Below, piece after piece: positions 2,364 to 61,797 of a DNA stretch of 64,000 nt. How positions within the stretch are numbered: the first letter of the stretch is position 1; each line of letters opens with the position of its first letter. The position numbers and the translations under genes are program-made. This stretch comes from Clostridiales bacterium (lineage in GTDB: Bacteria > Bacillota > Clostridia > Christensenellales > UBA3700): NCBI GenBank assembly GCA_014799575.1, contig JAAVHS010000015.1, positions 65,820 to 129,819 on the forward strand, written 5' to 3'. The notes under the pieces were generated by a model. That model was not told where the DNA came from. It did no database searches and saw only the letters and a list, made by a program, of their open reading frames with translations.

Positions 2364-3053
2364 ATGAAAAAATTCAAACACTATAAAAAACAGCAATTCG
2401 CCGTACTCGGCTTGGGCAGATTCGGTATGGAAATCACCAAAGCGCTCTACAACTACGGCTACGAAGTATTGGCGGTAGACACCAACGAAGAAAAAATCAA
2501 CGAAGTGTCGAGTTTCTGCACGCACTCAATCGTCGCAGACGTGTCCGAAGAAAGCACGCTCAAATCATTGGGAATTGAGAGTTTCGACACCGTAATTATC
2601 GCTATCGGCAGCAATATGCAAGCCTCGATAATTACCGCCCTCACTTGCAAGGAAATGGGCGTACCCAACATAATTGCAAAAGCGCACAATGAAAAACATG
2701 GCAAAGTGCTTTCCAAAATCGGCGTAAACGACGTTATCTACCCCGAAGCGGCAATGGCGACCAAAGTCGCGACTATGCTTGTCAATCCGAATATTCAAAA
2801 CCACATGGAAATCGTGTCGGGCTATTCGATAGCCGAAATAAATATCTCCGACAAATGGGTCAACAAAAACCTCGGCGAACTTGCTCTTAGAAATCAATAC
2901 GCAGTCAACGTCTTGATTATCATCCGCGCAAACGACGAATTGATTACCACCCCGTACGGCGACACCGTGCTAAAAGAAGACGACATTTTGGTAGTCGGCG
3001 GAAGTAACGAAGATATTGAAAGTTTGAGCTTTGCCGTAAGGACGAAACGCTGA
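2364..3053 (+). CDS. ktrA: TrkA/KtrA-family K+ uptake peripheral NAD-binding (RCK) subunit
   Basis: 229 aa. Rossmann motif VLGLGRFG at the N-terminus and a TrkA-C-like C-terminal half. AAGGAGA SD upstream; lies 25 nt after the ktrB-like gene. Confidence 0.85.
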   Translation: MKKFKHYKKQQFAVLGLGRFGMEITKALYNYGYEVLAVDTNEEKINEVSSFCTHSIVADVSEESTLKSLGIESFDTVIIAIGSNMQASIITALTCKEMGVPNIIAKAHNEKHGKVLSKIGVNDVIYPEAAMATKVATMLVNPNIQNHMEIVSGYSIAEINISDKWVNKNLGELALRNQYAVNVLIIIRANDELITTPYGDTVLKEDDILVVGGSNEDIESLSFAVRTKR

Positions 3054-33517: not shown

Positions 33518-33567
33518 GGAAGCGTATCGAAGTGGTCATAACGAGGTGGTCTTGAAAGGCATTTGAT
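33518..33567 (+). pseudogene. duplicated 5' half of tRNA-Ser (fragment)
   Basis: 33518-33557 is identical to the first 40 nt of the intact tRNA at 33786 (acceptor 5' arm through the anticodon loop CTTGAAA). Similarity decays over the next ~10 nt. No T-arm or 3' acceptor strand follows. Confidence 0.8.
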
Positions 33568-33785: not shown

Positions 33786-33874
33786 GGAAGCGTATCGAAG
33801 TGGTCATAACGAGGTGGTCTTGAAAACCATTTGGGTGCAAGCCCACGGGGGTTCGAATCCCTCCGCTTCCGCCA
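33786..33874 (+). tRNA. tRNA-Ser (anticodon UGA), CCA encoded
   Basis: Cloverleaf by eye: acceptor GGAAGCG/CGCTTCC, anticodon stem GTGGT/ACCAT, loop CTTGAAA (UGA). Long variable arm, T-loop GGTTCGAATCC, discriminator G plus CCA. A hairpin plus T-run follows at 33882-33925. Confidence 0.93.
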
Positions 33875-34051: not shown

Positions 34052-35872
34052 ATGAAATATAAAAACAATATCCAATTATCACAAGAACAAAGGTTATTTA
34101 TTTCCGAAGCAAAAAACGGAAATAATATTTTAGTTGATGCTTGTATCGGTAGCGGAAAAACTACTGCGATACAATATTTATGCGATGAAATGCCCAGTAC
34201 CCTCAACATTTTATATCTTACATACAATAAACTATTAAAAATTGATGCAAAATCAAAAATCAGCAGTTCAAATACTACTGTTACTAATTATCATGGTTTT
34301 GCATATTCTGCTCTGAAAGATGCAGGTATAAAAACCGGCGTTCCCGACTTGATACAAAGATTTAATAAAGAAAAACCAACTATACGCATTTATGATGTAC
34401 TTATAATTGACGAATACCAAGATATAGAGCAAGAACTAGCAGAAATGCTTGAATATATCAAATCCACAAATCCAAAAATGCAAATCATAGCCGTCGGAGA
34501 TATGGAACAAAAAATATATGATAAAACAACTCTTAATGTTCCTAAATTTATTAGTGGCTTTTTGGGGGAACATTTAACTCTAAAGTTTACTCTTTGTTTT
34601 AGACTTTCCGAAAATATTGCAAGTAAGTTAGGTCGTATTTGGAAAAAAGAAATTATTGGGGTAAATAATAATTGTATAGTTGAGGAAATGGATGTTGAGT
34701 CGGTAGTTAACTTTTTGGCGCAACAAAAGACCGAGGATATTCTATGTCTTGGTGCAAGAACTGGCAATTTAGCAAATGTCTTAAATAAATTGGAGTATCT
34801 TTATCCGCATAAATTTAATAAATACACAGTTTACGCTACAATTGCAGATAATAATTCTGACGGCGCAACCAAGCCGACAGATACTTCTGCTATTTTCACA
34901 ACTTATGATAGTAGTAAAGGCTTGGAACGAAAAATATGTGTTGTATTCGATTTTACGGAAAGCTATTGGAGAGTTAGAATTGATAAACCTCAGCAATCTT
35001 ATGAAATTTTGCGAAATATATTTTGCGTTGCCGCAAGTAGAGGGAAAGAACATATTATTTTTGTTAATGAAAAGGAAGCTATGCTTTCAGAAGAAACTCT
35101 ATCGTCAAAAGTTATTTCTAATGTAAACTTTAGTAATGTTGCTATTTCATCCATGTTTGATTTCAAATACAAAGAGAGCGTTGAGCGTAGTTACTCTTTA
35201 CTGCAAATAAATAAAAAATCTTCGAACGATGAATCTGAAATTGCAATAAAAAATCACGATGGTTTAATAGACATTTCTCCTTGCATTGGCATTTATCAAG
35301 AAGCGGTATATTTTAATCAATATGATATTGATAAAGAAATCGAACAATATTTTTCTATCCATCCCGATTTAAAATTTTTGTATAACAAAAGAGTGAAAAA
35401 TTATTCGCTTGATGAAAAGATTTTGTTTTTAGTATCATTAGATACTAAACAAGATAGATATAGAAAACAAGTCCAAACGCCATTTGTGAGTAAAGAGGAA
35501 AATCAACAAATTGTAAAACGCTTAAAGTCGTTATTGAATAGTAATGAAAAAGTACAAGTACCATGCGTTATTGATTTCTCAAATGCAACAAATGAAAAAG
35601 TTATATTCTCGGCGGAAGGATTAGCAGATGTTGTAAAAGATAATATAGTATATGAGTTGAAATTTGTATCTGAATTATCTCATGAAGATTTTTTACAATG
35701 CGCTTGCTATATGGTTGCGTTAAAACTAGAAACTGGAATACTATGGAACACACGCAAAAATGAAATTTATGAAATTAAAATCCCAAATAGAAATCTTTTT
35801 ATGGATAGCGTAATAAATACCATAACGAAAGGTGTGTTTGATAAGTATTTTGAGCTGAAAGTAAATAACTAA
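34052..35872 (+). CDS. UvrD/Rep-type SF1 helicase fused to C-terminal PD-(D/E)xK-like nuclease domain
   Basis: Walker A CIGSGKTT, motif II IIDEYQD, motif III AVGDMEQKIY, motif V TYDSSKGLE, motif VI VAASRGKEH. The C-terminus has DVVKDNIVYELKF...CACYMVAL (D...ExK pattern). Own TTGAAA-17-TAGAAT promoter at 33985-34013. Confidence 0.8.
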   Translation: MKYKNNIQLSQEQRLFISEAKNGNNILVDACIGSGKTTAIQYLCDEMPSTLNILYLTYNKLLKIDAKSKISSSNTTVTNYHGFAYSALKDAGIKTGVPDLIQRFNKEKPTIRIYDVLIIDEYQDIEQELAEMLEYIKSTNPKMQIIAVGDMEQKIYDKTTLNVPKFISGFLGEHLTLKFTLCFRLSENIASKLGRIWKKEIIGVNNNCIVEEMDVESVVNFLAQQKTEDILCLGARTGNLANVLNKLEYLYPHKFNKYTVYATIADNNSDGATKPTDTSAIFTTYDSSKGLERKICVVFDFTESYWRVRIDKPQQSYEILRNIFCVAASRGKEHIIFVNEKEAMLSEETLSSKVISNVNFSNVAISSMFDFKYKESVERSYSLLQINKKSSNDESEIAIKNHDGLIDISPCIGIYQEAVYFNQYDIDKEIEQYFSIHPDLKFLYNKRVKNYSLDEKILFLVSLDTKQDRYRKQVQTPFVSKEENQQIVKRLKSLLNSNEKVQVPCVIDFSNATNEKVIFSAEGLADVVKDNIVYELKFVSELSHEDFLQCACYMVALKLETGILWNTRKNEIYEIKIPNRNLFMDSVINTITKGVFDKYFELKVNN

Positions 35873-36081: not shown

Positions 36082-37260
36082 ATGTTTAACATGTCTCAAT
36101 TTCAAAATTCTATGGATTCTTTTATTAGAGAAAATGATAAATCTTTACGTCGCATATTTAGTGGGAAAATCAAAGGAAATTTTCTTACTGCAATAAAAAA
36201 TAGTGTCAGACAAATGTTAGGTCCTGATATCTTTAGATATTATGATATGCAAATCACGAATGAGAAATTAGTATCAACCGGCTTTGAAGAACCAGATTTT
36301 GATATTTGTCATCATATTGTCGGTATACATAGATCAAACTTAATTTTCAATACAGAGGAAGAACGATTAAAAAAAGAGAAAAGTGAAGACTATAAAAACA
36401 CATTAGTAAATGATGTTATTACCAATATTAAGTTAAGACAATATGGCAGTGTTTTCTTCCAAAAGCAAGTTGTTAGCCGTGGAGAAAATTTCAACTATTA
36501 TCCTATCCCTTATGACTTGTTTGTTTTATGCGTTAGAATGAATGACTTGCTTTCTAAATGCAATGACAACGTATATATTTCATTGATAGCTGCTATAGTT
36601 AACAAGGGGTTAGCTGCATTAACTTTGCTTGAAGGCAATTTCTTCGATTGCGCTTATCCAATCTGTCGTGGAATTACCGAATTATATTTAAAATTACTTA
36701 TACTCTTAGATAACCCAAATACAGTGGAACATTTCTTGAAATTTAATGAATATGATTTATTAAAATCTTGCTGCGAACAAAAATATTCAACTGAATTTAA
36801 TAATGCTTATAATAATCGCATAAATAAAAACCATAAGAGCAAGTCTGAATTCTTGCATTTCGGTTGGCTAGATACAATAGACGATTATCATTCAGATAAT
36901 ATTAGACCATATTCTATAGGTGGAATAATCTCCTACTTAAAAACAAAATGCGATCAAGAAGAACAGATAAATACTTTTGACGAAATAGAGACATTGTATA
37001 AGATGTGTCACGGATATACTCACGGTAGTGTCGTTCGCTCAAAGTATCCACTACTACATTATTTTGAAATATCACTTATGTTATATTATACTATTTATCA
37101 TACTTATATAATTCTATGCGATTATCTAAAAGTCGATACTGTTATAAATGATATTGATATTCTAAAAAAGATTGCAAAAGATGTCGCGCAACTATATACC
37201 CAATATTATGCTCGCAGTACTGAAAATTTCGAATTATATGATAAATTAAATAAACTATAA
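36082..37260 (+). CDS. hypothetical protein (orphan, island-borne)
   Basis: 392 aa, predicted mostly helical, no motif recognised. Own TTGAGT-17-TATACT promoter and GGAG SD. Confidence 0.7.
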   Translation: MFNMSQFQNSMDSFIRENDKSLRRIFSGKIKGNFLTAIKNSVRQMLGPDIFRYYDMQITNEKLVSTGFEEPDFDICHHIVGIHRSNLIFNTEEERLKKEKSEDYKNTLVNDVITNIKLRQYGSVFFQKQVVSRGENFNYYPIPYDLFVLCVRMNDLLSKCNDNVYISLIAAIVNKGLAALTLLEGNFFDCAYPICRGITELYLKLLILLDNPNTVEHFLKFNEYDLLKSCCEQKYSTEFNNAYNNRINKNHKSKSEFLHFGWLDTIDDYHSDNIRPYSIGGIISYLKTKCDQEEQINTFDEIETLYKMCHGYTHGSVVRSKYPLLHYFEISLMLYYTIYHTYIILCDYLKVDTVINDIDILKKIAKDVAQLYTQYYARSTENFELYDKLNKL

Positions 37261-37405: not shown

Positions 37406-40033
37406 ATGCTTAAGAAAAATAGAGTTACTATTCCCAAAAATATAGCTGATGAGGTAATGTTTATTCATAATAACACTTGTTGTGTATGCCGAGAGGCTTA
37501 TAAAGCCACTCAGATTCATCATATTGATGAAAATCCCGCTAATAACGACATAAATAACCTTGCAGTTTTATGCCTTGAGTGTCATAACCAAACGCAAATA
37601 ACTGGCGGTTTCGGCAGGCATCTTAATGCTAGTCAAGTCATTAAATATCGGAATCAATGGCTGGAAATTGTAAAAGAACGTAATCATAACTTAACTTTAA
37701 CTACTTTTCCTGCCGAAAAATCTCCCTCAAATTGTTGGGAAAAAATTGATTATACAAATCAATGTGGCATAGAAAATGCAATTGCTGGATTAGGATTAAA
37801 CCAAAATAGCGTAATTAGCTGTCCAAAATTACCAATTTTTAATGAAGCTTACATTAATGTAAATACACTTCACTTCGTAAGCATTATAGGAGAATCTGGC
37901 TCTGGGAAATCTTTAACTGCCTTCCAAATTGCTTACGAATTTTACAAGAATGGATATGATATATTTTTATATATTGGCGGTGATCCAGCAGAATTACCGA
38001 GCAACTCCCCTGCCTTATACATTATTGATAATGCTCATCTATATCAATCATTAGTAAATAGACTCAAAACAAAAGTTAACAAAAATGTTAAATTGATATG
38101 TGTCTATACCGATTCCGCAAATGTACAAGAACGAGGTATAAGAATAACAGCTAAACAAGCCGTAGATGTTTTATACGATTATTACAAAACTAATGCGAAA
38201 TTGATTATACCCGTCATAAAGTCCATTAATCGCAGATTCGGCACTGATTTTGGAGATATTTCTTATGCAAATTTAATTGCGCGAGCAAGACTTCAAAAAA
38301 GTCCATATTATTTCAACTACATAATTCGAGGCGCTGCCGATTATATTAAAGACAAAATTTCAACTTACAAAGAAGACGAAGTTAGCGAAATTCTAACCAT
38401 TATAGCCATCCATCAAATTTTAAATGCTGATGATTATTTGTCTGTAGAAAAAATTAATGAATTAATCTCACCGCAATTACTTTCCGACGACTTTGAAACA
38501 AAATTAGTGTTCAATGATAAAGTACTTGTTAGAAATAAAATAGGATTCAAGTTTTCACATATACATACGGCTATCAATTATCTAAACTGTTATATTGCAA
38601 ATTCCTTTGATAATCAAACTTTTGCCAATAGAACATTTTGGTACTATTTTAATAACAATTCTTATTCCATGCAAGGTTTTTTGTGGCTAGTTAATAATTT
38701 GCCATTCGGCGGAGTTAATTATAAAACAAATAGACAAAATTTAGGTCTATTTACGACTGAAGAAATAGAAACAATTTATGATAAATTGCAAGAAAGAAAA
38801 AATGAAACTTATTTTCTTGGCGTTATTGAAAAAATCGAACATTATTTAAAAAGTAAGAACATTAATGATAATATCGACGAATATATCGAGATAATCAACT
38901 CATGTCAAGTTATTGATTTGCCAAGCGTTGGGGGGTTTCTCAATATGCAAATTAATAAGGGGAAAGATGATGACTATTTTACTCTTAAAAAAATCCATGA
39001 TAATATTAATTATTCAAGAATATTAAAACTGTTTAATGCGGCCACTTCTGAAGATTTAATCTATTTTGTTCGTTTTTTTGATAGACTATCCTATAATTTT
39101 AATGGGTGGAACAAAAAAGTAACTAAATATTTGGATATAGATGGATTTACTTTAAAAATAAAAAATATTTCACTAGATTATCTTTATTCAATAACTAGCA
39201 TAGCCGCAACCTTTAGTTCATGCGATAAAAACTTAATTGAAATTAAGGACGCTTGTATTAATAAAATACTTCTCTATCTAAACCAAAATCCGTTTGAAAC
39301 TTGGCAGCAAATTGATGATCACACATTTTTTCAACTTTGGGGGTATCAATCATTTTTTGATAGAATTGTTACGAAATCACTAAACGATAAAATTATGAGA
39401 GCAAGATTTGCTGAATCTATAGACGCAAATATATTAGCAAGTCAAGTCTCATCCAATGTTTTATATCATTGGCAATCGATATCTCAATTGTTCGAGATAA
39501 TATATAGATTTGATAAAAACAAATATTATCAAACAACTAATAAAATCAACTTAAACAAACTCGCTATACAATTGCGTGAACTTTGGGGCACTGAGCAAGA
39601 GTTTGAGTTTTTAGATGTTCTCTATCATGATAGTAAAGCAATTAAAAAACTCATTATTCTTTGTGAAGCGGATATTAAAGAAATAACTCCAGCTATTTTA
39701 TACTTTTCTGTGGAAAGTGCAATTTACCTTCATAAAAAAGGAAAAATTTTTAATTTTAAATATTTTAGAAATGACCACATTTTGTCTTTAGGATTATTAA
39801 AACTTGTAAAAAGAGATAAATCCTTGGGCATTCGTCTTATTGTAGAAAACAAGGAAAACTTAATTAAATTTATCAAAGGACATATTTATGGTTTTGAGGA
39901 CAGCGATATTAAACTAAAAAAATTCATACATAAGTCGTTGAATGAAATTAAAGATGATTTATACCAATCTAACTTAACTACAGAAGAATTGGATACGCTA
40001 TTAGATCTAAGAAATTACAATCTAGCAAAATAG
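37406..40033 (+). CDS. HNH endonuclease fused to P-loop NTPase (STAND/AAA-like) with long helical C-terminal region
   Basis: HNH: CCVCREAYKATQIHHIDENPANNDINNLAVLCLECHNQ (aa 25-61). Walker A IIGESGSGKS (aa 160-169). Walker B-like ALYIIDNAH. About 650 aa of N/K/I/Y-rich helical sequence follow. Confidence 0.8.
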   Translation: MLKKNRVTIPKNIADEVMFIHNNTCCVCREAYKATQIHHIDENPANNDINNLAVLCLECHNQTQITGGFGRHLNASQVIKYRNQWLEIVKERNHNLTLTTFPAEKSPSNCWEKIDYTNQCGIENAIAGLGLNQNSVISCPKLPIFNEAYINVNTLHFVSIIGESGSGKSLTAFQIAYEFYKNGYDIFLYIGGDPAELPSNSPALYIIDNAHLYQSLVNRLKTKVNKNVKLICVYTDSANVQERGIRITAKQAVDVLYDYYKTNAKLIIPVIKSINRRFGTDFGDISYANLIARARLQKSPYYFNYIIRGAADYIKDKISTYKEDEVSEILTIIAIHQILNADDYLSVEKINELISPQLLSDDFETKLVFNDKVLVRNKIGFKFSHIHTAINYLNCYIANSFDNQTFANRTFWYYFNNNSYSMQGFLWLVNNLPFGGVNYKTNRQNLGLFTTEEIETIYDKLQERKNETYFLGVIEKIEHYLKSKNINDNIDEYIEIINSCQVIDLPSVGGFLNMQINKGKDDDYFTLKKIHDNINYSRILKLFNAATSEDLIYFVRFFDRLSYNFNGWNKKVTKYLDIDGFTLKIKNISLDYLYSITSIAATFSSCDKNLIEIKDACINKILLYLNQNPFETWQQIDDHTFFQLWGYQSFFDRIVTKSLNDKIMRARFAESIDANILASQVSSNVLYHWQSISQLFEIIYRFDKNKYYQTTNKINLNKLAIQLRELWGTEQEFEFLDVLYHDSKAIKKLIILCEADIKEITPAILYFSVESAIYLHKKGKIFNFKYFRNDHILSLGLLKLVKRDKSLGIRLIVENKENLIKFIKGHIYGFEDSDIKLKKFIHKSLNEIKDDLYQSNLTTEELDTLLDLRNYNLAK

Positions 40034-40077: not shown

Positions 40078-40587
40078 TTATGGCTCAATAATAGTTATTT
40101 TTAATCCTTTATTGCGTGCATAATCTATTGTCGATTTCGTACCGCCCGCTGCACCGCTATATAATGCTATCATCATAGAAGAATTATCTACCATAAATCT
40201 ATTCCGTTCAAGCATACATTCTGCGCCGATATATTCATCATAAATACAACGGACACAATCCAACTGTCTTATCAGTTTTCTATAACGTTGTCTATCTTGC
40301 ACTTGCCACTTAATATCTTGCGTCCTACAAGGCAATACTCCAACAATATTAATATCATTATATTTCTCTTTTAACTCTAATATCGTTTCAACACAAATCA
40401 AATCAAAACCTAGTGCCATGCCACTATAAAAAGTTTCGTAGCCATTATTGATTGCCTTTTCTATTTCAATACGCAAATTGTCCTTCATTTTTAGGCAACG
40501 CTCATCATTCTCATTAAATCCCCAAATAAGTTTCTGATTCCTATGACCTGTAAAACATACGCTTTTCGACTTTACTAACTTTAACAT
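40078..40587 (-). CDS. SLOG-fold DUF1273 (YpsA-like) protein
   Basis: Start moved to ATG 40587 (MLKLVKSKSVCFTGHRNQKL...). FTGHR, YSGMALGFD and GGTKSTIDYA blocks are typical of the DUF1273/YpsA family. The TTG-initiated 21-codon extension in the track overlaps a structured RNA element. Confidence 0.8.
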   Translation of the reverse strand: MLKLVKSKSVCFTGHRNQKLIWGFNENDERCLKMKDNLRIEIEKAINNGYETFYSGMALGFDLICVETILELKEKYNDINIVGVLPCRTQDIKWQVQDRQRYRKLIRQLDCVRCIYDEYIGAECMLERNRFMVDNSSMMIALYSGAAGGTKSTIDYARNKGLKITIIEP

Positions 40588-40594
40588 AAAAAGA

Positions 40595-40781
40595 TGCCGC
40601 CCCTTGCGGAACGGCACCGTAGAATACCGTCCCTTTGGTTGCGACGCCAAATAAACCTTTTTCCGTGGAAATCAGTCTGGAACAGGTATTGCTACCAATG
40701 TTAGATAGATTTCCACGTATAGCGAAACTATACCCCTACTTTCTAGGAATTGCAAAAGGTTTATTTAATTTGACGTCGCAA
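40595..40781 (-). promoter_or_regulatory. structured 5' leader (riboswitch/attenuator-like) ending in a terminator that abuts the SLOG start codon
   Basis: Read on the minus strand. A long outer helix pairs 40754-40781 with 40639-40661. It encloses hairpins CCUA-GAAAG-UAGG, GUAUAG-UUUCG-CUAUAC, a 10-bp stem CGUGGAAAUC/GAUUUCCACG and GGUA-GCAA-UACC. Next comes the possible antiterminator GGGACGG...CCGUUCC. Last is the terminator UGCCGUUCC-GCAA-GGGGCGGCA+UCUUUUUAUG (40595-40616). Confidence 0.55.
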
Positions 40782-40785
40782 GATT

Positions 40786-40814
40786 ATTTTAACACCTCTT
40801 GACAAAAATATCAA
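40786..40814 (-). promoter_or_regulatory. sigma-A-type promoter driving the structured leader
   Basis: On the minus strand: TTGATA (40809-40814), 17 nt, TAAAAT (40786-40791). The predicted TSS falls at the 5' edge of the outer helix. Confidence 0.55.
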
Positions 40815-40855
40815 GAGTAATCTAAAAGAAACGACAATTACTTTGTTTTAATTCT

Positions 40856-42508
40856 TTACATCTCCAAATCTTTTTTCCTTGCTGCTCTCCTTTCCATATA
40901 TTCCAAATAATCAAGATACTCGTCATAGTCATCGAAACCTAGTTTCGCCATTTCTTCTTTGGCTTTCTTATATTCCGCAATAGAATTGTCCAAATCTTCC
41001 AAAATTTCGTCTTGACTCATTCTACTAGCCTTTTCAAGTATTTCTTTGACGTTAGGTTTAATCTCGTCCGTAGCCGCCTCTACGGGCTCAGGATTGACTT
41101 GTGCTTGTGTCTGCACTTGCGCTGGGACTTTCCCTTGCGCTTGTTCGTGTTCAGCGCCTCTAAAAATGTTAGACAACAATGCTTTCGTTTCATATTGGTC
41201 TTGTTCGTCATGCTCCATCATTTCGCCGCCGAACGCATTAGTGAGTGTATTCGCCACATTGAGTTTTGACGAATAGTTCAAATGGCTATAAATATCTGCC
41301 GTCGTGCTTATAGCCGAATGACCTAACCACTCTTGAATTTCTTTCATACTCACACCGCACGCAAGCAAGAGACTTGCGCAACTGTGCCTAAGTTCGTGGA
41401 ATCTTATTTTCGGCAACTCATTCTGCGTAAGAAAATTTTGGAAATGACAAGTTAGCGTATTAGGATTTACTATCATTCCTATCTCATCAACCCAAACATA
41501 GTCTATATATTCTTGATTATAATACTTGCCGAACTCAGCCTTATTCTTGTCTTGTTCTGCTTTTAATTTTAGCAACGCTTCTTTTATTTCGGGTATCAAC
41601 GGCATTGTTCTCTTGCTTGCAGCATTTTTCATCACGTCCTTTTTTACAAGTACCGTTTTGTTGTTTACACTTGCTTGAACTATAGATGAATTGAGCGTGA
41701 GTTTGTTGTTATCAAAGTCTATCGAACTCCACCTCATACCGCAAAGCTCACTACGACGCAAACCGTAGAACGCAGTCATCTTATACATCAATTCATACTT
41801 ATCTCCTTTCAATTTTTCAAACAAAACTTTCAACTGTTTTAAGTCATAATACTTGGCTTCGTATTTTGGGCTTTTGGGCTTCTCTACCTTTGACGCTGGA
41901 TTTACTTGAATCCTATCCGTTCTATATGCAATCTCCAATGCTCTCCGAATAATAACGTGAGCGTGCGTACAAGACTGAACACTCTTGCCATTATCTATCA
42001 GCCATGCATAATATGTTTGTATGTCCATCGGACTTATGCCTTGCAAAGTTATTCCTCTGTCATTAAAATACGGAGCAATTTGTTTTATCTTGGCCTTGTA
42101 TGATGAATATGTACTAATCTGCAAATTAGTTTTCGCCATCTCAATCCACTGCGCTAGATAATCGCCAAACAACATATCTTCGCCCATATATTGTCTCGCT
42201 TGATACATATAACCCGATTGCAGCATAGGTTGTCCTTGCATCATGTATGTAGGTTGCGGTTGCCACATATTCTGCGGCTTTCGAGATTTAGGCATTTTAA
42301 TCTTACGCGTACCATTCTTCTTGACAAGTTCTTCTACTTGCGGATCAAAGTTCGCAACAATATCACGCATCAACTCTTCGGCTATTCTCTTATTATTTTT
42401 CACAGGCAAACCCGTTGCCTTCCATTTTTGTTTATTCTTTCCTTGTGAATCTTGATATGATATGACTACGTAATATCTTCCATTCTTAACTACTAATCTT
42501 CCAGTCAT
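40856..42508 (-). CDS. int: tyrosine recombinase/integrase (Tn916/phage-type) with unusual insertions
   Basis: N-terminal arm-binding-type region: MTGRLVVKNGRYYVVISYQDSQGKNKQKWKATGL. Catalytic region: HELRHSCASLLLACG...LGHSAISTTADIYSHL. At 550 aa it carries a Q/P/M-rich insert and an acidic C-terminal extension of about 130 aa. Confidence 0.9.
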   Translation of the reverse strand: MTGRLVVKNGRYYVVISYQDSQGKNKQKWKATGLPVKNNKRIAEELMRDIVANFDPQVEELVKKNGTRKIKMPKSRKPQNMWQPQPTYMMQGQPMLQSGYMYQARQYMGEDMLFGDYLAQWIEMAKTNLQISTYSSYKAKIKQIAPYFNDRGITLQGISPMDIQTYYAWLIDNGKSVQSCTHAHVIIRRALEIAYRTDRIQVNPASKVEKPKSPKYEAKYYDLKQLKVLFEKLKGDKYELMYKMTAFYGLRRSELCGMRWSSIDFDNNKLTLNSSIVQASVNNKTVLVKKDVMKNAASKRTMPLIPEIKEALLKLKAEQDKNKAEFGKYYNQEYIDYVWVDEIGMIVNPNTLTCHFQNFLTQNELPKIRFHELRHSCASLLLACGVSMKEIQEWLGHSAISTTADIYSHLNYSSKLNVANTLTNAFGGEMMEHDEQDQYETKALLSNIFRGAEHEQAQGKVPAQVQTQAQVNPEPVEAATDEIKPNVKEILEKASRMSQDEILEDLDNSIAEYKKAKEEMAKLGFDDYDEYLDYLEYMERRAARKKDLEM

Positions 42509-42693
42509 TATGCTGCCTCCTCATTTATAAATTCGATTACGTTTCGCTTTGCGATGATATATCTGCGGCCTACTTTGCGTGATTTAATCTCACCGCTGCG
42601 GACAAGTCTATATGCAAGCACTTGTCCAATGTGCAACATCTCCGACACTTGCTCAACACTTACAACGTCGGGATAGTCTTTAAATACTTCCAT
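42508..42693 (-). CDS. xis: excisionase-family DNA-binding protein
   Basis: 61 aa. VSVEQVSEMLHIGQVLAYRLVRSGEIKSRKVGRRYIIAKRNV is a MerR/Xis-type winged HTH. GGAGGA SD; its stop overlaps the int start. Confidence 0.85.
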   Translation of the reverse strand: MEVFKDYPDVVSVEQVSEMLHIGQVLAYRLVRSGEIKSRKVGRRYIIAKRNVIEFINEEAA

Positions 42694-43653: not shown

Positions 43654-45111
43654 TTAGTCCAATAAAGATTGTTTATTGAATAATGTTCCATCCATTGGAA
43701 TTATTTTAATATCTTCAAATATTTCATGATAATCATTGATAGAAGCTATGAACACCTGGTGATCAGCAAAATCTCGTTTAATGATAGTTAACATAGTTCT
43801 AATAGTCTCATCCTCTATCTCTCTTCCACTTGGTGAATCGCAAAATATTGGAAGTGGATATCCAACTTTCTCACTTAATAATTTAATATAAACTAGTTTA
43901 TGCATAAATACCATTTTATGTAGTACTGCACCTGATTTTGATTTTAACTTGTGCGTAAAAATATCTATTTTATACGCAGGAGAAAGCCCTAGCTCTAAAG
44001 TATACCCTTCAATTATTTTATACGCCTTATCAATCCAATCATTGGAGGCTTTTGTCCGTTTAAGTAATTGTTCATTGATAGCCTTTCTTTCTTTTTTCAA
44101 TTTATCAACTAAAGATTGGGCCTCTATTGTTCCTATTCTTTTAACATCGGCAAGTCGTCTAACCAAGTCCTCTTCCACATTAGGAATATTTTCAAAAGAA
44201 ATTTGTTTTCTTTGTGTAGATTCTATTTCTGCAATTCGCTGTTTTATTGCATTCTTTTCTGACACAAGTAAAAATTTCCGCGCCTCATTCGACTCGAATA
44301 CCTGCTGATAATTATATAAATTATGCCTAGTTACCTGAATAATCTCTTGATCTAGTGTTTGAATATATATTTTCTTTTTTTCAATGTAATCAACAAAATC
44401 CTTATTGCCTTTAATGATTTCATTAATTTCTTTCAGTTCTTCCTCAACAATAGATAATCTCTGTTTCTTCTCAAGCAACTCCCTTTCAAGTGTCTCTCCA
44501 TAAGTATCATAACTTACTTTTTTATTCACTTCTATATTAATAGCATCTTGATACTCCGCAATGTTAACCATAAATTTGTACTGCGCTATTTTCTTATCTA
44601 TCTCCCTCAATTTTGATTCAAGCATACGACTTTCTTCGCTATCATCATCATTTAATCCTCTAAAAAAGTCTTCTATTGAAAAACGATTAATTCCTATAAT
44701 AGTGCCTCTATTTAATAATGTCCATCCCTTTTCTTGATCAAAATATATTGTACCTAATAAATTATCGAGCAAATTGTGGTCCATAATATTAAAGAGCATA
44801 GCTCTAATTGCTAACTCATCTACTGGCAAGCCATAGTCAACATCATTTATAGTTATTAAAGAATCTTTTCGAACTATATTAAATTCCGAACCATTAACTA
44901 TAATTCTCATAACAAATTCAAAATCACTAAATTTAATAAGTTCGGTGTCTGGAACATTAAATCCTAGCGTGTATAGAAAAGCACGTATTAAAGTAGTCTT
45001 TCCAGTAGAATTAGTATTGCTATGGAAATTAAAAACTGATTTATCCTCATCTATTACAGTCTTAAAATTAAAAGATTGTTTGTGCCGAAGTTTAAAGTTT
45101 ATTATCTTCAT
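43654..45111 (-). CDS. SMC/Rad50-like ABC ATPase, LmuB-like (DUF3732-type layout)
   Basis: N-terminal Walker A NSTGKTTLIRAFLYTLGF, a long central coiled coil (E/K/I/L heptads), then a C-terminal LPIFCDSPSGREIEDE ... DHQVFIAS (Walker B/H-loop-like). The 4-nt overlap with the upstream Cap4-nuclease gene indicates coupling. Confidence 0.6.
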   Translation of the reverse strand: MKIINFKLRHKQSFNFKTVIDEDKSVFNFHSNTNSTGKTTLIRAFLYTLGFNVPDTELIKFSDFEFVMRIIVNGSEFNIVRKDSLITINDVDYGLPVDELAIRAMLFNIMDHNLLDNLLGTIYFDQEKGWTLLNRGTIIGINRFSIEDFFRGLNDDDSEESRMLESKLREIDKKIAQYKFMVNIAEYQDAINIEVNKKVSYDTYGETLERELLEKKQRLSIVEEELKEINEIIKGNKDFVDYIEKKKIYIQTLDQEIIQVTRHNLYNYQQVFESNEARKFLLVSEKNAIKQRIAEIESTQRKQISFENIPNVEEDLVRRLADVKRIGTIEAQSLVDKLKKERKAINEQLLKRTKASNDWIDKAYKIIEGYTLELGLSPAYKIDIFTHKLKSKSGAVLHKMVFMHKLVYIKLLSEKVGYPLPIFCDSPSGREIEDETIRTMLTIIKRDFADHQVFIASINDYHEIFEDIKIIPMDGTLFNKQSLLD

Positions 45112-46136
45112 TGTAAATTCGCCGCCTCTCGTACTTGTTCTATTTTTTTGTTTCTATTTATCATTGTTAATAGTGTTAATTTTACGACAGCTTGTCGAAC
45201 ATCGCTATCTTTAATTTCACTAAATGCATTTTCATATTTCTCCCAATTATCAATAACAAATTTGTATTTAAATTTAGTTCGTTCCTCAGAACTCAATAAT
45301 CTACGCTGTATGCTATATTCTGCTAGTGCCGGAGTTACAAAATCATATTCACAACACCGAGCAGTTATCAATTTAGTGTATTGTGAAGCAATTTCATCAT
45401 AATCTTCAAAGTCGCTAACTTTTTGAAATTCTTCTAATTTCACAGGATTATCAATTGCTAAAACTATAACGGGATACATTATCTCTTTTTTCTCTTTTGC
45501 AAAGCTCATTCCCTCTTTTGGCTTATCTGTGCAGTTAAGTGAGAATAAAGTATACCATTTATTCCAAAGCCGCTCAATATAAGAAGTATTACCTAAAGCA
45601 TCTTGTAAAAACTCTTTAATACTTTCTTTGATTGAGGCAAATTTATTATCACCTTCACCAAAGAATTTTAGAACATGAATATGAAACTTTTCTATCGGGA
45701 AATCATTCCCCACAATATCTTTCAATTTATTCTGGTCTTCCAATGGCAAACTTGAATAATCATATTGACTATCATAACTGGAATAAAATGGACTAATTTC
45801 TCTCGAGTTTGATAATGGATTTAATATATTAGTAATGTAAATTAATTGCACAAAATCAGAATTTTTCTTTACATCATCAGAGAGTGTTTCTAATGACTTT
45901 CTCAAATTATCATTTGCAGTATTCTGCTGATTCATCTGAGTTACAGACTTTGCTTGAGCATATATTTTCCCATTCGGCAAAGTGATCTCAATATCATCAT
46001 CTTTTCCTTCCATCTTTAACGCCGTAAACTCTTTGACATTCTCAAGCATTAACTTTATACCTGCCCCAACTTGAAATGCCCACCCAAAAGCAGATGCCGA
46101 TGCATTTCTATCTTTCTCTGATTTATCTGCCATCAT
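45108..46136 (-). CDS. Cap4-type (DUF4297) PD-(D/E)xK nuclease-domain protein, LmuA-like effector
   Basis: N-terminal SAFGWAFQVGAGIKLML...MEGKDDDIEITLPNGKIYAQAKSV matches the GFxYQ...D..E..QxK pattern of Cap4/DUF4297 nucleases. A C-terminal region of about 200 aa is unknown. Confidence 0.6.
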   Translation of the reverse strand: MMADKSEKDRNASASAFGWAFQVGAGIKLMLENVKEFTALKMEGKDDDIEITLPNGKIYAQAKSVTQMNQQNTANDNLRKSLETLSDDVKKNSDFVQLIYITNILNPLSNSREISPFYSSYDSQYDYSSLPLEDQNKLKDIVGNDFPIEKFHIHVLKFFGEGDNKFASIKESIKEFLQDALGNTSYIERLWNKWYTLFSLNCTDKPKEGMSFAKEKKEIMYPVIVLAIDNPVKLEEFQKVSDFEDYDEIASQYTKLITARCCEYDFVTPALAEYSIQRRLLSSEERTKFKYKFVIDNWEKYENAFSEIKDSDVRQAVVKLTLLTMINRNKKIEQVREAANLQ

Positions 46137-46541: not shown

Positions 46542-46949
46542 TCATATCAGTTCTTTAATTTTATCTATTAACTTCTCTCTATTTTTATTTTTTAACTCAC
46601 ATTCCCAAATACGAATTACCTTCCAACCTTTGTTAGTTAAATAATATGTAATATCCTTATCATGTTTTTTGTTATAATCGCGCTTTCTATCCCAAAACTC
46701 GGAATTCTCTTTAGGTGTAACGTTCCTACAATCGTGGCCATGCCAAAAACATCCATCAACAAAAACTACAACCTTTTTCTTTGGAAATACAAAATCCGGT
46801 TTTCCAATCAGCGGATAAGTTCTACGCCAACCTATAATATGTAACTCTTTAAAAATCGTTATCATTCTCAATTCAGTCGTTTTTGTATTTCTACTTTTAA
46901 CGGCCTTCATAACTGAAGACCGTTTTTCTTTGCAAAAGATATCACTCAT
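46542..46949 (-). CDS. vsr: very short patch repair endonuclease (Vsr)
   Basis: Start set at ATG 46949 (AAAGGTG SD; MSDIFCKEKRSSVMKAVKSRNTKTTE). GKPDFVFPKKKVVVFVDGCFWHGHDC core motif. Confidence 0.9.
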   Translation of the reverse strand: MSDIFCKEKRSSVMKAVKSRNTKTTELRMITIFKELHIIGWRRTYPLIGKPDFVFPKKKVVVFVDGCFWHGHDCRNVTPKENSEFWDRKRDYNKKHDKDITYYLTNKGWKVIRIWECELKNKNREKLIDKIKELI

Positions 46950-47022
46950 AACTACACACCTTTTACCATCAATTTCCCCTATACGTCTATTTATCAAATA
47001 AAAAAATATTCTTTTTTTTCGC

Positions 47023-51105: not shown

Positions 51106-52341
51106 TTAGTCTTCATCAACTAATAGATCGATAATTTTATTCGCAAACGCAATCGCCATTAATGGTGGAACCGCATTACCAACTTGTTTTACAACGTCCG
51201 ATCTATTTCCTTCGAAATAATACCAATCCGGAAAAGATTGTATTCTAGCGCCTTCTCTTGGCGTTAAAGCTCTATCCTGCTCATAATGAATGCATCGTAA
51301 ACCGGAAGGCGTAGCTAAATTGTTTGTTATTGTAGTAGATGGCTTATTTCGTTCTAGTCTCCCATACGTATTTCCATACCCTGATGTCAAGTAATATTTA
51401 CTATCAATTAATCCAGCAGCAACTTTGGCATTAAAATCGTCCTTTCCCTCACCTTCATTAACATTCTCTATTACAGTTCTAATTTTATCCCCATAAGTTC
51501 CACAAAAATGCACTGTAAGTTTATCGCAATCTCTACGCATAAGTTTTTGATAATCAGTCATAGGCGGCTTATCGTATTCCTCTATTGTTTGCCCTTCGCC
51601 AACCTCCGGCAAATCCGAAATTGCTTGATATACTGAAATAGTTTGCTTACCGTCACCTTTCGGATAATCCCACTCTATATTCAAGCCATCTCTTACGCCT
51701 ATAATGAAAACCCTTTCCCTGATTTGTGGAACTCCAAAATCCGTTGCTAGCATAGTTTTGGTACAAATCTTATACCCAATATCGTTAAACTTGCGTTGTA
51801 ACACGTCAATTACAAGATCACCATAATGATCCACTACAGGTTCTAATCGAGTAAATTCTTTGTCTCCTCTATGCTTTATAACTTCCTTTGTGACAACTTG
51901 TCCATTTTTATCAGTTTTATAAAAGATTTCTCTCATAGACAGAATACCTTTTACATTTTCAAATAAAAACATTTTCGGTTTAATCTTCTCGAGTAATCTT
52001 AAGTACTGATGCGACAATTTTGCTCTATCGTCATATTTTCTTTGACCAACGGTACTAAACGATTGACAAGGTGGACCGCCAATTATCACATCCACTTCCT
52101 CGCCTTTTAGCATTTCGTCAATTTTTTCATCTGTGATTGCACAAATATCACCCTCAATCATTGGGATATCACTGCCGTAGTTTTTCCTAAATGCCGCCGC
52201 CGCTTTTGGAGCAAATTCATTTGCAAACACAAATTGAACGTTATTTCTTTTAACAAAACGTTTGTTTATTAAGTCATAATAAAATCCAAAAGTTAAACCA
52301 CCAACTCCGGAAAACAAATCTACAATTTTACACTTTTTCAT
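51106..52341 (-). CDS. dcm: DNA (cytosine-5)-methyltransferase
   Basis: Motif I DLFSGVGGLTFGF, motif IV GGPPCQSFS, motif VI FENV, motif VIII QIRERVFIIG, motif X GNAVPP; 411 aa. Confidence 0.93.
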   Translation of the reverse strand: MKKCKIVDLFSGVGGLTFGFYYDLINKRFVKRNNVQFVFANEFAPKAAAAFRKNYGSDIPMIEGDICAITDEKIDEMLKGEEVDVIIGGPPCQSFSTVGQRKYDDRAKLSHQYLRLLEKIKPKMFLFENVKGILSMREIFYKTDKNGQVVTKEVIKHRGDKEFTRLEPVVDHYGDLVIDVLQRKFNDIGYKICTKTMLATDFGVPQIRERVFIIGVRDGLNIEWDYPKGDGKQTISVYQAISDLPEVGEGQTIEEYDKPPMTDYQKLMRRDCDKLTVHFCGTYGDKIRTVIENVNEGEGKDDFNAKVAAGLIDSKYYLTSGYGNTYGRLERNKPSTTITNNLATPSGLRCIHYEQDRALTPREGARIQSFPDWYYFEGNRSDVVKQVGNAVPPLMAIAFANKIIDLLVDED

Positions 52342-58608: not shown

Positions 58609-61600
58609 TTATTTTACCTTTGTTGCGCATCGGACGTAATTCTTAAATACGTCGTTTCTTGTCATAGTCTCCGCATCGCCGATTACGACTAACAACCTTC
58701 TTGCTCTTGATAATGCAACGTTGATTCTGCTCTTTGAGTAATGAATGAATCCAAGGCTCTTTTCAATATCTATCTCGCGATTACTTCTTGTCGTGGATAA
58801 TAAAACTATGTCAAACTCTTTTCCTTGATATGAGTCAACCGTATTGCATTCGATTTTTCTCAAATCCTCGTCGGGAAATTTGTCTTTTAAAAGTTTATTT
58901 ATCAATTCCACTTGCCCCTTATAGAAAGACATTATGCCTATTTTATAATCTCGACTTGAATTTTTGCGAACGATATCTTGCACAATCTCGATTACTTTAT
59001 CCGCTTCCGCCGGACGACTTAATTTATATGACGATTTCTCTTCCATTCCCTCAGTTATAGGCACGTCTTGCCATACCATGTTTTCTCCAGAGAAAATGTT
59101 AAAATCATTGATTTTTGATATCGTTGTTTGCCCGTTTTCAATACCGCCTTCTATTCTTTCTATTCCGTTTTCATCAATGATTTTTCTCTCATAAAATTGT
59201 TCACTGATAAATCCGCCAATCTTTGGATGCATACGATGTTGCTCTTGGATACGTATATGTCTACGAAACTTTAATTTGCGCTCATTCCAAGATTTTTCAA
59301 GGCTATCATACAATACTTGAAAAATGGATTTCGTCAATAGCGTTTCATCAAAGTTGCTATACTTTTCCTTTTCATTTTTGAATCTACGCACATAGTCGGT
59401 CTCTACGTAATGCGGCAACTGCATTTGATCTCCTACCATAATAACTCTAGTTCCCATAAGAACCGGAATCATAATATCCAAAGGATTAGCTCGCGCAGCC
59501 TCATCTATAATAACGTAATCATATTTATTGCCACTCAAATCAATCATACTGCTACTACGATCTGCTTGCGCGCAAGTGCTACCTATTACGTTAGTATATT
59601 TCATAATGATATCTCTAACGTTATCAGCGTCGCTCATTTTATACTTTAACGCTTCTATAATATCGTAAAAATCTTTCTTGCGATATTTAGCTACTTGACG
59701 AATTCTATTTAATAGAGAGTCGAATAGTTCTTTATACGTTGTTATCGCAAGCTCAAATTCATCTTTTTGCGGATCTATCTCACTCCTAATACTATCAACG
59801 TAGTTAAGATATTTTTTAAACGTACTCTCATCTCTTGTAGCAAACAACTCGTCTTTAAGCGCTTGATCAATTAATAGATAATTGTACCCGTATCGCTTGA
59901 TAACTCTTTGCAATTCATCCAACTGATATTCGCCGTCGTCTTCATAGAACGCATCTATATCCAAACGCTGTGAATTTAATTTTCGTTTGATAAAATCCAT
60001 TCCCTCGCGCTCATCTTCGTATGATACCCCACTATTACGAAGTTTTGCCTCAATTTGCGCAACTATATCTTTCACGTCATCCCACAGCCCCATGGTCATT
60101 ACGTAGCGAGTAATATTCTCTATCTTTTCTGCAATGATTTCTTGTGAATACTTTTTATCCACTATAGTCTGAACATCGAATATCAATTTTGTCAAGATAT
60201 CAGAAAATCTATCTTTTTGAGTCCGTTCATTTAGAATCCTATTGCATAAATCGAGAAAGCGTCCTTGGAAATCCTGAATATTCCTACGCATTTTCTCTTC
60301 ATTTTCAGCCCTTTCGTCTCTTGAATACTTTTCGCTTGTTACAAAAGGTGGTATTGAATTGCCGGATAGTTTGTCCACAACGTTATACAAAGCTTCGTGT
60401 TGCTCACTACTGACAAGTATCTTATAGTTCTTATTTCCCATTGCCCCTAGTCTTGCGATAATACCATTTATAAGTGTTGTCTTTCCCGTGCCCGGAGGTC
60501 CTTGTATCAATGCTATATCCGGAGTATTCAACGCTATAAACATCGCCTGTCTAAAATTCTCTTTCAATTCCACGTCGGTTCTACCAAACATTTTTTTAAG
60601 AACGTCATTTGTGATAGGTTCTACGTCAGATCCGGTCTGACTATCTTCCTCGCCTGCACTCAATCGCATTATCATATTTGACGTACTATTACTTTTTCTT
60701 TCTATTACCGACATGACGCTTTGGCGACGGCGTTCTTCTGTCTTTATATTTCTATCAGAAAGGATAACGTAACCAACCTCAGGTATAGCGACAGCTATCT
60801 CCGGATAATTAAATATTAATTCATTAGTATCAAACGACTCGTTGAGCGCTTTGCCTAATCTTATAGTTGCGCCCCTTGTTTTTTCTCTTTGCTCTATAAT
60901 TTCCTCTATATTCTTAAAACTATTTCCTGTTTCTGAAAATACTATATCGTACTCTTGCGAAGAAGCCTTTACTCTATCGCCAAACAATGGAAAGCTATCA
61001 ACGTTCTTTTCAAATTGCAATACTATTTCTTCACCTTCGTTTCGATATGACTTGTACTTTGCGTATCCCAATTCAACGACTTCATCGTGAAACACTTTAC
61101 TTTCAAAACTAATAAATTCTTGCCATGCTTTAAACAACTCGTTTGTATGAACTTCTGCAAGCGGTGCGTCATGTCCCTTTGTTTTTATTGCCTCGTCGAA
61201 AGTTACGAACTTAACGTGTCCGTATATTTGTATTATTCTATCTATACTATTATTAACTCTAATCTTGGTGAGCTTTTTGATCCTGTAAATTCCGGGCCTC
61301 TCTTTCTCAACGTTAGCGCGATATCTATTTCCATACATTTGGAAAGTCCTTATTGCGCTACCGCCTTGGTACTCAGCAATGAATACGCTTTTATTATTCA
61401 TAAACTCGTCTTGAAGAAATTTTATTTCATCGCCGCCAACTATTTCGCCCAATTCTTCAAATTGATTTTTAACCATTCTTTCCAAATAAAAGTGCATAGT
61501 TTCGCTTTCTAGGTCTATGCGTCGCACCCTAGAAAAAACGTAAAGCAATACTACCAAATGATTATTTACAACGTTGCATTCATAAATCGATTCGTTTTCC

Positions 61601-61797
61601 TCATCAGGAAAATCACTGAAATTTCGCACAACGAAATCCGATTCATCGTCAAGACTATTTAATTTATATTCTTTGCCATCGACAACGGCAAACAACGCCC
61701 CGCCTTTTTTCCGCAGTTTCTTAATTTGGTCAAGATTTACTTTTTCATCTATTGAAAAGTTGCCGGTTTGGCAAATATCTATTAAAAACTTATTCAT
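58609..61797 (-). CDS. Upf1/DNA2-like SF1 helicase (AAA_11/AAA_12 type) with ~420-aa unknown N-terminal region
   Basis: Walker A IQGPPGTGKTT, Walker B YVIIDEAARANP, VDSYQGKEFDIVLLS, INVALSRARRLLVVIGD; 1062 aa. The ATGA overlap with the PP2C gene indicates coupling. Confidence 0.85.
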   Translation of the reverse strand: MNKFLIDICQTGNFSIDEKVNLDQIKKLRKKGGALFAVVDGKEYKLNSLDDESDFVVRNFSDFPDEENESIYECNVVNNHLVVLLYVFSRVRRIDLESETMHFYLERMVKNQFEELGEIVGGDEIKFLQDEFMNNKSVFIAEYQGGSAIRTFQMYGNRYRANVEKERPGIYRIKKLTKIRVNNSIDRIIQIYGHVKFVTFDEAIKTKGHDAPLAEVHTNELFKAWQEFISFESKVFHDEVVELGYAKYKSYRNEGEEIVLQFEKNVDSFPLFGDRVKASSQEYDIVFSETGNSFKNIEEIIEQREKTRGATIRLGKALNESFDTNELIFNYPEIAVAIPEVGYVILSDRNIKTEERRRQSVMSVIERKSNSTSNMIMRLSAGEEDSQTGSDVEPITNDVLKKMFGRTDVELKENFRQAMFIALNTPDIALIQGPPGTGKTTLINGIIARLGAMGNKNYKILVSSEQHEALYNVVDKLSGNSIPPFVTSEKYSRDERAENEEKMRRNIQDFQGRFLDLCNRILNERTQKDRFSDILTKLIFDVQTIVDKKYSQEIIAEKIENITRYVMTMGLWDDVKDIVAQIEAKLRNSGVSYEDEREGMDFIKRKLNSQRLDIDAFYEDDGEYQLDELQRVIKRYGYNYLLIDQALKDELFATRDESTFKKYLNYVDSIRSEIDPQKDEFELAITTYKELFDSLLNRIRQVAKYRKKDFYDIIEALKYKMSDADNVRDIIMKYTNVIGSTCAQADRSSSMIDLSGNKYDYVIIDEAARANPLDIMIPVLMGTRVIMVGDQMQLPHYVETDYVRRFKNEKEKYSNFDETLLTKSIFQVLYDSLEKSWNERKLKFRRHIRIQEQHRMHPKIGGFISEQFYERKIIDENGIERIEGGIENGQTTISKINDFNIFSGENMVWQDVPITEGMEEKSSYKLSRPAEADKVIEIVQDIVRKNSSRDYKIGIMSFYKGQVELINKLLKDKFPDEDLRKIECNTVDSYQGKEFDIVLLSTTRSNREIDIEKSLGFIHYSKSRINVALSRARRLLVVIGDAETMTRNDVFKNYVRCATKVK

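Follow-up and report, generated by a model that had tools for sequence, protein, structure and literature searches.

A conserved structured RNA with a terminator/antiterminator switch upstream of YpsA-type SLOG genes in Clostridia

A 64,000-nt stretch of a Clostridiales bacterium genome (assembly GCA_014799575.1, contig JAAVHS010000015.1, positions 65,820–129,819 of the forward strand; hereafter the window, whose own numbering is used throughout) carries a conserved structured RNA of ~195 nt directly 5′ of a YpsA-type SLOG gene. Together with its own strong promoter the RNA occupies 40588–40814 of the minus strand, and it contains a terminator/antiterminator switch. Three mutually exclusive pairings are found in it: an antiterminator hairpin, an intrinsic terminator, and a duplex between a module at the tip of the hairpin domain (M) and the segment that precedes the terminator (P). 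The element recurs in ~36 distinct sequences, all from gut or rumen assemblies of Clostridia/Christensenellales, and the complementarity of M and P is kept in every instance, with compensatory changes. It is probable, in our judgment, that the element represents a previously undescribed family of leaders or small RNAs, working as a three-layer attenuator in front of the YpsA/YoqJ-type SLOG genes of mobile elements.

Structure of the element in the window

Transcription of the element would begin at a sigma-70-type promoter (40814–40786, minus strand, as for all features of the element below) with a −35 box TTGATA at 40814–40809, a 17-nt spacer, and an extended −10 box TGT-TAAAAT at 40794–40786. 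The boxes suggest a promoter of near-consensus extended −10 type. The transcription start is predicted at ~40781–40779, and the first helix starts ~5 nt past the −10 box. An earlier note, made from the sequence of the window, had listed a TTGATA-17-TAAAAT promoter, an outer helix with one bulge, enclosed hairpins, and an antiterminator competing with a terminator; all of these are present where it had placed them on the minus strand, some in a modified form as described below.

The minus strand of 40580–40790 folds with −80 kcal/mol (z = −8.4 against 200 dinucleotide shuffles), and the plus strand of the same region gives z = −5.9 by dinucleotide shuffling. Several G-U pairs occur in the fold, and the structure is therefore specific to the minus strand. 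In both the minimum free energy (MFE) and the centroid folds, a structured domain (40640–40780) is closed by an outer helix made of P1 (11 bp, 40780–40770 with 40650–40640) and P1′ (11 bp, 40764–40754 with 40661–40651), which are separated by a 5-nt bulge on the 5′ strand. The helix encloses the P2 hairpin CCUAG-AAAGU-AGG (40747–40735), the 7-bp P3 hairpin GUAUAGU-UUC-GCUAUAC (40733–40717), and P4 (40716–40665), a long stem GUGGAAAUC/GAUUUCCAC with internal loops that ends in the tip GGUA-GCAA-UACC. The earlier note had counted four hairpins here. The CCUAG and GUAUAGU/GCUAUAC hairpins are indeed formed, and so is the long CGUGGAAAUC/GAUUUCCACG stem with its GGUA-GCAA-UACC end, but the domain branches into these three stems rather than into four independent hairpins. 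The G+C content of the region, which had been called conspicuous, is enriched only modestly (0.39 versus 0.30–0.36 in the flanks).

The segment P (GGGACGGUAUUCUAC, 40633–40619) lies between the outer helix and the terminator, and it can serve either as the 5′ arm and loop of the antiterminator or as the partner of M. The antiterminator hairpin GGGACGGUAUU-CUAC-GGUGCCGUUCC (40608–40633) has 11 bp, G-U pairs included, and ~−15 kcal/mol; it extends the shorter GGGACGG/CCGUUCC pairing from which it was first recognized, and transcripts that stop short of the terminator's 3′ arm have it as their MFE structure. The intrinsic terminator GGUGCCGUUCC-GCAA-GGGGCGGCAUC (40618–40593) also has 11 bp and bears a GCAA cap, in agreement with the GNRA-capped terminator of the earlier note. 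Its U-tract UUUUU (40592–40588) runs straight into the SLOG start codon, ATG at 40587, and a Shine-Dalgarno (SD)-like AAGGGG (40605–40600) lies inside its 3′ arm (T3′). The module M (GUAGCAAUACCUGUUCC, 40695–40679) occupies the distal half of P4, at the tip of the structured domain, and can form 15 bp with P, with two single-base bulges.

Homologues, covariation and linkage to SLOG genes

Homologues were collected by two scans. A SLOG protein-guided scan, with one genome per species, gave 80 SLOG loci. In 14 of these, iterated nhmmer searches placed the element upstream of SLOG, and one locus (L020) yielded a second copy. The other scan was blind to SLOG and relied on an exact DNA pattern (ACGGTAT N0-3 TCTRYRGTGYCGTTC) taken from the block of highest conservation, with one scan per collection. 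It returned 1 viral-contig locus and 27 metagenome loci, of which 23 are true instances; the five others, all among the metagenome hits (L085, L086, L099, L101, and L103), are chance matches in unrelated GC-rich DNA. Six loci (L110–L115) were added from look-ups of closer SLOG homologues. Of 31 full-length homologues, 29 carry a promoter of the strict pattern TTGAYA-17-TGn-TAnAAT, which ends 4–6 nt ahead of the first helix, and a similar box can be seen by eye in the remaining two (L100 and L102).

The family has two main architectures, and a further variant (L096) also differs distally. Subtype A consists of the window and eight others, together with the variants L008 and L113, and comprises P1, P1′, the P2 hairpin, P4, and the terminator. 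Its RNAalifold consensus (9 sequences) has compensatory changes in 14 of 54 pairs, for instance GCGACGUC/GGCGUCGC versus GCGAAUCC/GGAUUCGC in the outer helix. P2 is kept across the subtype as a C-rich/G-rich hairpin, with compensatory changes at alignment pairs 38–41/67–70. Within P4, pairs 87–96/133–142 covary and the tip pairs 109–112/117–120 are conserved. P3 is confined to close relatives of the window and lies outside the consensus. Subtype B (21 sequences) has a P1 of 16–17 bp, a bulge on the 5′ side, a P2 of 12–13 bp, and a distal loop with its own hairpin P3, GAGUAUAGU-AAUGGUAGA-ACUAUACUC. The enclosing helices of the family amount to 22–29 bp and ~−40 kcal/mol.

A covariance model built on subtype B recovers all instances and scores the window at 61.7 bits; it detects no additional, more divergent copies in the 66 SLOG loci without the RNA, nor another one in the window. 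In the covariance-model alignment 95.1% of the cells are paired, versus 42–46% when the partner strand is slid. Double changes occur in 21 of 37 pairs (P1 5/8, P2 10/11, P3 3/6, terminator 3/12) and none of 500 shuffles reaches any of the observed covariation measures, in an alignment that was fitted to the model and among sequences that are mutually related. Folding and covariation among homologous upstream regions had been proposed in the earlier note as checks on the element, and both came out in its favour.

The long-range M:P helix does not depend on a guided alignment. When subtype B was aligned by MAFFT without guidance, RNAalifold picked this helix itself, and not P1/P2. Its strands in subtype B are the interior GUAGAA-C-UAUACU ... 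AUCGC and the pre-terminator GCGAU-GAAC-GGUAUAUUCUAC; a 12-bp part of the helix (HX) shows 99.2% pairing, and a 6-bp part (HY) carries double changes in 4 of its 6 pairs. In subtype A the register is M = GUAG(N)AAUACC(U)GUUCC with P = GGRACGGUAUUCUAC, 15 bp that are 99.3% paired and invariant within the subtype; here P is 2 nt shorter and M is likewise 2 nt shorter. Exchanges on one strand are met on the other. L008 and L113 carry AUGUAC/GUACAU instead of UAUAC/GUAUA, with G-C for A-U; HY is swapped in L111 for the unrelated complementary pair CAUUGUA/UACAAUG, and is lengthened to 7 bp in L107 (AUCGUUG/CAACGAU) and L095 (UCGUUA/UAACGA); and in L115 a C in M answers a U-to-G change in P. The best partner of P within the hairpin domain, as computed by RNAduplex, is the homologous M site in 32 of 32 sequences (−14 to −21 kcal/mol). 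Cognate M:P duplexes average −18.0 kcal/mol versus −15.0 for non-cognate ones, a difference reached by none of 5000 permutations, although the test is somewhat inflated by the relatedness of the sequences.

The antiterminator takes different shapes in the two subtypes, with 11 bp and a CUAC loop in subtype A and 9+4 bp and an AUUCUAYG loop in subtype B. It is 96.6–99.2% paired (96.6% in subtype B) with little covariation, since its bases answer to two or three alternative partners. The terminator is 98% paired in subtype B. Over 36 sequences the mean energies are −18.9 kcal/mol for the terminator, −13.9 for the antiterminator, and −18.1 for the M:P duplex. An SD-like AAGGGG or AAGGGAG lies within T3′, and AUG follows the U-tract in every direct arrangement; the terminator would therefore block transcription and translation alike.

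The gene that follows the element in the window (40587–40078, minus strand) encodes a 169-aa SLOG protein of the YpsA/YoqJ type (Pfam PF06908, E = 1.8e-28); among solved structures B. subtilis YpsA, 2NX2, comes closest to it. When 30 homologues are aligned, its start falls at MLKLVKSKSVCFTGHR, ATG 40587, and a 190-aa version extended to a TTG is accordingly an artefact of mechanical ORF (open reading frame) calling, as is a 55-aa plus-strand ORF at 40635–40802. No relatives of the protein were found among viral contigs. A same-strand SLOG gene lies downstream in 33 of 40 element instances. Among the true hits of the SLOG-blind pattern scan the figure is 17 of 23, and two more hits are on contigs that end early and whose near-identical relatives have SLOG. 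The linked proteins belong to several subfamilies (CFTGHR, CSCFGH, CAFFGHR, and CCCTGHRP), two of which are related to the family of the window only at the hhalign level (probability 90–94%), and each RNA subtype occurs with more than one of them. The presence of both subtypes across several divergent subfamilies argues that the coupling is functional and not the result of co-inheritance alone. The genes upstream of the element vary among loci and include xis-int (confined to the window and close relatives of it), a Y-family polymerase accompanied by a small ORF that we take to be YolD-like and that has no Pfam match, an ABC-type ATPase, Fic, and others.

Two arrangements of RNA and SLOG gene can be distinguished. 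In arrangement I the terminator abuts the SLOG ATG directly, as in the window. In arrangement II (~9 loci) a gene for a helix-turn-helix (HTH) repressor of the XRE type lies on the opposite strand between the two, its stop codon overlapping the U-tract, and SLOG has its own promoter with an operator palindrome. A divergent XRE-SLOG layout without the RNA is the commonest SLOG context in L005–L081. Repeated palindromes TAGACAATAA...CATTGTCG occur in the divergent XRE-SLOG intergenic region of L084, L088, L105, and L109 (for example at 660–800 of L088 as oriented) and are probably operators of a two-HTH repressor. It looks as if SLOG can be controlled by the RNA, by XRE, or by both together. Several loci depart from both arrangements. 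L100 and L102 keep the RNA with only four SLOG codons left, and L082 and L094 have no SLOG nearby. In L020 two diverged copies of the element (239–420 and 1021–1185) flank one SLOG gene, and the second copy is immediately upstream of a cupin/AraC-type regulator gene, the only non-SLOG ORF seen after the element.

The element has no counterpart among described families. At the gathering threshold, Rfam 15 finds tRNA-Ser and nothing else in the whole window. A permissive scan of 40400–41000 gives at best 20.6 bits against a gathering score of 60, and a subtype-B representative (L032) reaches at most 18.7 bits. The earlier note had been unable to match the element to a riboswitch class, and this is borne out. 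There was no blastn match of the element in phage and plasmid collections, and a literature search returned nothing relevant that joins DUF1273/YpsA/SLOG with a riboswitch or RNA motif.

A proposed attenuator and its competitors

In the attenuator that we favour, a strong constitutive promoter would start transcription 1–3 nt ahead of the long, covarying hairpin domain, which would be followed by P and then by the terminator T with the SD in its 3′ arm and its U-tract leading into the start codon. Pairing of P with the 5′ arm of T (T5′) would form the antiterminator, allow read-through, and leave the SD free. Alternatively, M, the proposed anti-antiterminator strand, would capture P; T would then form, transcription would stop, and the SD of any read-through RNA would be masked. 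The potentially toxic SLOG protein would thus be off by default, and on only when M is kept from P. We infer termination at T and the formation of M:P in vivo, either in cis or between molecules. A macromolecular trigger is more likely than a metabolite, and might be terminated copies of the RNA acting in trans or the SLOG protein itself; feedback by the protein is as good a candidate as the RNA and would account for the gene specificity. Tight control of SLOG would fit the observation that overproduction of the B. subtilis homologue YpsA blocks FtsZ assembly and cell division (PMC6459960).

Since P has two exclusive partners and T5′ also has two, the segments M, P, T5′, and T3′ follow the 1:2, 2:3, and 3:4 alternative pairing of the trp-type four-segment attenuators. 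Unlike those, the element has no conserved leader peptide or SD for one, and its segment 1 lies hidden in the end of the long hairpin. With the SAM-I/S-box and T-box platforms of Firmicutes it shares three mutually exclusive helices upstream of a regulated ORF, an intrinsic terminator with a U-tract, an SD sequestered in the terminator, and a consistent association with one gene family. However, the anti-antiterminator strand in those platforms is the 3′ strand of a short P1, whereas here a module from the far end of a 22–29 bp hairpin domain takes this part; the element also has no Rfam match and no conserved ligand-pocket bases, and its sensor architecture varies between subtypes.

The plasmids pT181, pIP501, and pAMbeta1 use transcription attenuators that are driven by countertranscripts, i.e. 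antisense RNAs. As in these, the element would be a leader of a mobile element in which an RNA-RNA contact, probably loop-to-loop at first, decides between a pre-emptor or antiterminator and a terminator. The regulator is likewise carried on a long stable stem-loop and is complementary to the segment that governs the pre-emptor (M:P), and the terminator has a competing pre-emptor helix. The differences are that the complementary module here lies on the same strand, within the same transcript, and that a SLOG protein rather than a replication initiator is regulated. An opposite-strand −35/−10 match, as for an antisense promoter, is found in none of 37 instances, and none is present on the plus strand within 40588–40814. 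The logic is already known from leaders with terminator, antiterminator, and anti-antiterminator and from plasmid countertranscript attenuators, and the location of the anti-antiterminator strand at the tip of the long hairpin sets the family apart.

Several observations weigh against the attenuator as drawn. With the 22–29 bp hairpin domain intact, M and P would be at opposite ends of a 60–80 Å rod, and M:P in cis would be a strained pseudoknot, particularly in subtype B. The pairing may hence be intermolecular or may need partial unfolding. A cis pairing would require a sharp bend at the conserved 5′-side bulge, which is plausible for subtype A, whose P4 can fold back. Covariation lends modest support to the antiterminator and to most of M:P, because their bases are so highly conserved. 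Arrangement II does not allow the RNA to serve as a simple 5′ leader of SLOG, given the intervening, oppositely oriented XRE gene, and 66 of the 80 SLOG loci have no RNA but only the divergent XRE-operator arrangement. Finally, transcript start, termination, and read-through are all predictions from sequence.

The steric difficulty of a cis contact is one reason to consider that the RNA senses itself, or acts as an autonomous small RNA in trans, a tentative possibility. The distal loop or M of a terminated RNA would enforce termination by kissing the antiterminator loop of a nascent copy or of a related element; read-through into SLOG would then perhaps be limited to cells that do not yet hold the RNA, such as those which a mobile element has only just entered. 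The loop GGUAGA of P3 is complementary to the antiterminator loop UUCUAC, and the pairing can spread into the adjoining stems. A near-consensus promoter followed by a strong terminator implies that the short RNA should be abundant. Action in trans would also account for the persistence of the RNA as a gene of its own, convergent with XRE, in the ~9 loci of arrangement II, where read-through would be antisense to XRE and sense to SLOG, and it would fit the retention of the RNA in L100 and L102, which have lost SLOG. Nevertheless, the intermolecular pairing is a prediction from complementarity, both loops are tetraloops and thus poor kissing partners in subtype A, orthogonality is not clear either between the copies of L020 or between those of L096, and self-sensing by itself does not explain the specific association with SLOG genes.

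A metabolite riboswitch, in which the multi-hairpin domain would be an aptamer for a small molecule and the ligand would select the antiterminator or the terminator, is unlikely. The earlier note had seen a classic riboswitch architecture, and part of this holds: a structured and covarying domain lies 5′ of the regulated gene, terminator and antiterminator helices exclude each other in an expression platform, and the element is tied to one gene family across divergent subfamilies as strictly as riboswitches typically are. Known riboswitches such as SAM-I also use an anti-antiterminator of the M:P type. SLOG proteins are predicted nucleotide binders (PMC6459960), and the ligand might be a SLOG-related nucleotide derivative. 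What finds no support is the closed aptamer. The enclosing helices are too stable to depend on a ligand. Of the 67 alignment columns with ≥90% conservation in subtype B, helices account for 53, and the remaining 14 belong for the most part to the U-tract, the terminator loop, and helix edges. Only ~4–6 conserved unpaired bases are left in the sensor domain, and pairing explains nearly all of the conserved bases. Invariant unpaired or junction bases common to all members, as for a ligand pocket, were not found in the subtype B columns, and the subtypes differ distally. Only the module complementary to P is common to A, B, and the L096 variant, and there is no match to any Rfam family. The conserved part of the presumed aptamer is then a module complementary to the expression platform, which points to RNA-RNA logic rather than to a small-molecule pocket.

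Two further proposals are less likely still. In a type III toxin-antitoxin-like pair the RNA would be an antitoxin that neutralizes SLOG, with the terminator setting the ratio of RNA to protein. The succession of promoter, RNA, terminator, and ORF resembles toxI/toxN; the intrinsic terminator between RNA and ORF, the growth-inhibiting product, and the location in mobile elements or defence islands are as in ToxIN, CptIN, and TenpIN; and the RNA persists when separated from SLOG. The toxicity of overproduced YpsA (PMC6459960) is a further point in its favour. Yet we consider the pair very unlikely. A tandem-repeat RNA antitoxin was rejected, as TRF finds no tandem repeats in 40400–41000; SLOG (PF06908, 2NX2) has no endoribonuclease fold such as that of the ToxN/AbiQ RNases; co-occurrence is not obligatory, the 66 loci without the RNA having an XRE repressor instead; and the alternative pairings of M:P, antiterminator, and terminator would have no role. 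It is scarcely credible that the element acts at the DNA level, as the attachment (att) site of the adjacent integrase or as a single-strand origin, or that it is a leader-peptide attenuator. The −35 box lies 42 nt beyond the end of the integrase gene, and a partial copy of the element abuts a tRNA gene in L096. However, the integrase is upstream only in close relatives of the window, and 40560–40900 is unrepeated elsewhere in the window beyond chance 12-mers. The att-site idea, which the earlier note had named as a way in which its inverted repeats might be explained, is therefore rejected, given the varying upstream genes and the lack of a repeat. The strand-specific structure, with its many G-U pairs, and the conserved promoter and U-tract also speak against a DNA-level element. 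As for a leader peptide, a UUG or AUG codon often precedes GUAG in the module, but a candidate AUG, GUG, or UUG start is present in 19 of 33 sequences and absent from 14, lacks an SD, and falls within a hairpin loop; the leader peptide was rejected since the start codon is not conserved.

Surroundings and implications

The element of the window lies in a region with the features of a genomic island. A tRNA-Ser(UGA) gene is found at 33786–33874, and the beginning of its 5′ half, over 40 nt or more, recurs exactly ~268 nt upstream (33518–33558). The G+C content falls from ~0.45 to ~0.29 right after this gene, which marks the start of the island. The region 33900–64000 looks like a defence island. 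Its genes include a GajB-like UvrD helicase (34052–35872), DUF5677 (36082–37260), an HNH + STAND NTPase (37406–40033), a candidate PDC-M46A/B system (45108–46136 and 43654–45111), Vsr (46542–46997), DUF6339, a C5 cytosine methylase (51106–52341), DUF2357, a 1062-aa SF1 helicase (58609–61797), and a protein kinase (62494–63906). The tyrosine integrase in the region 40856–42693 is unusually long (550 aa), with a Q/P/M-rich insertion near residues 75–105 and an acidic extension at its C-terminus. A 61-aa HTH_17 excisionase-like gene comes before it, with a stop that overlaps the integrase start.

Features of other loci deserve mention. In L096 (3749–4227) a tRNA gene (3749–3836) abuts the partial copy of the element (3834–4009), which has a different 5′ half, and a complete copy follows at 4062–4227; the RNA module may thus sit at the integration end of some mobile elements. 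In L094 a long non-coding stretch with G+C-rich hairpins, without an Rfam match at the gathering threshold, lies ~800 nt downstream of the element, where SLOG would be expected. A second hairpin, AAAAAUCCGUUCGC-AUUA-GCGAGCGGAUUU, flanked by A- and U-tracts, follows the terminator of the element in L004 (~2594–2640) and L082 (~2990–3035), and it looks like a bidirectional terminator in common with a convergent short HTH gene. The metagenome contig of L088 carries a full-length OLE (ornate large extremophilic) RNA at 11904–12479 (395 bits), ~8 kb from the element.

Our analysis adds a new structured RNA family with strong covariation to the uncultured gut Clostridia/Christensenellales, a group with few characterized regulatory RNAs, and proposes for the silencing of YpsA/YoqJ-type SLOG genes a three-helix mechanism that is concrete and testable. 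That a single RNA family is specifically coupled to several very divergent SLOG subfamilies suggests that the two are functionally linked, be it through feedback by the protein, a common nucleotide signal, or a ribonucleoprotein, and this link could help to show what the widespread SLOG proteins of mobile elements do. If the RNA does sense itself in trans, it would represent a new route to antisense-type control without an antisense gene, the same-strand counterpart of plasmid countertranscript control. Entry of a mobile element would then trigger a pulse of a SLOG protein that modulates cell division, and related elements may be cross-immune.

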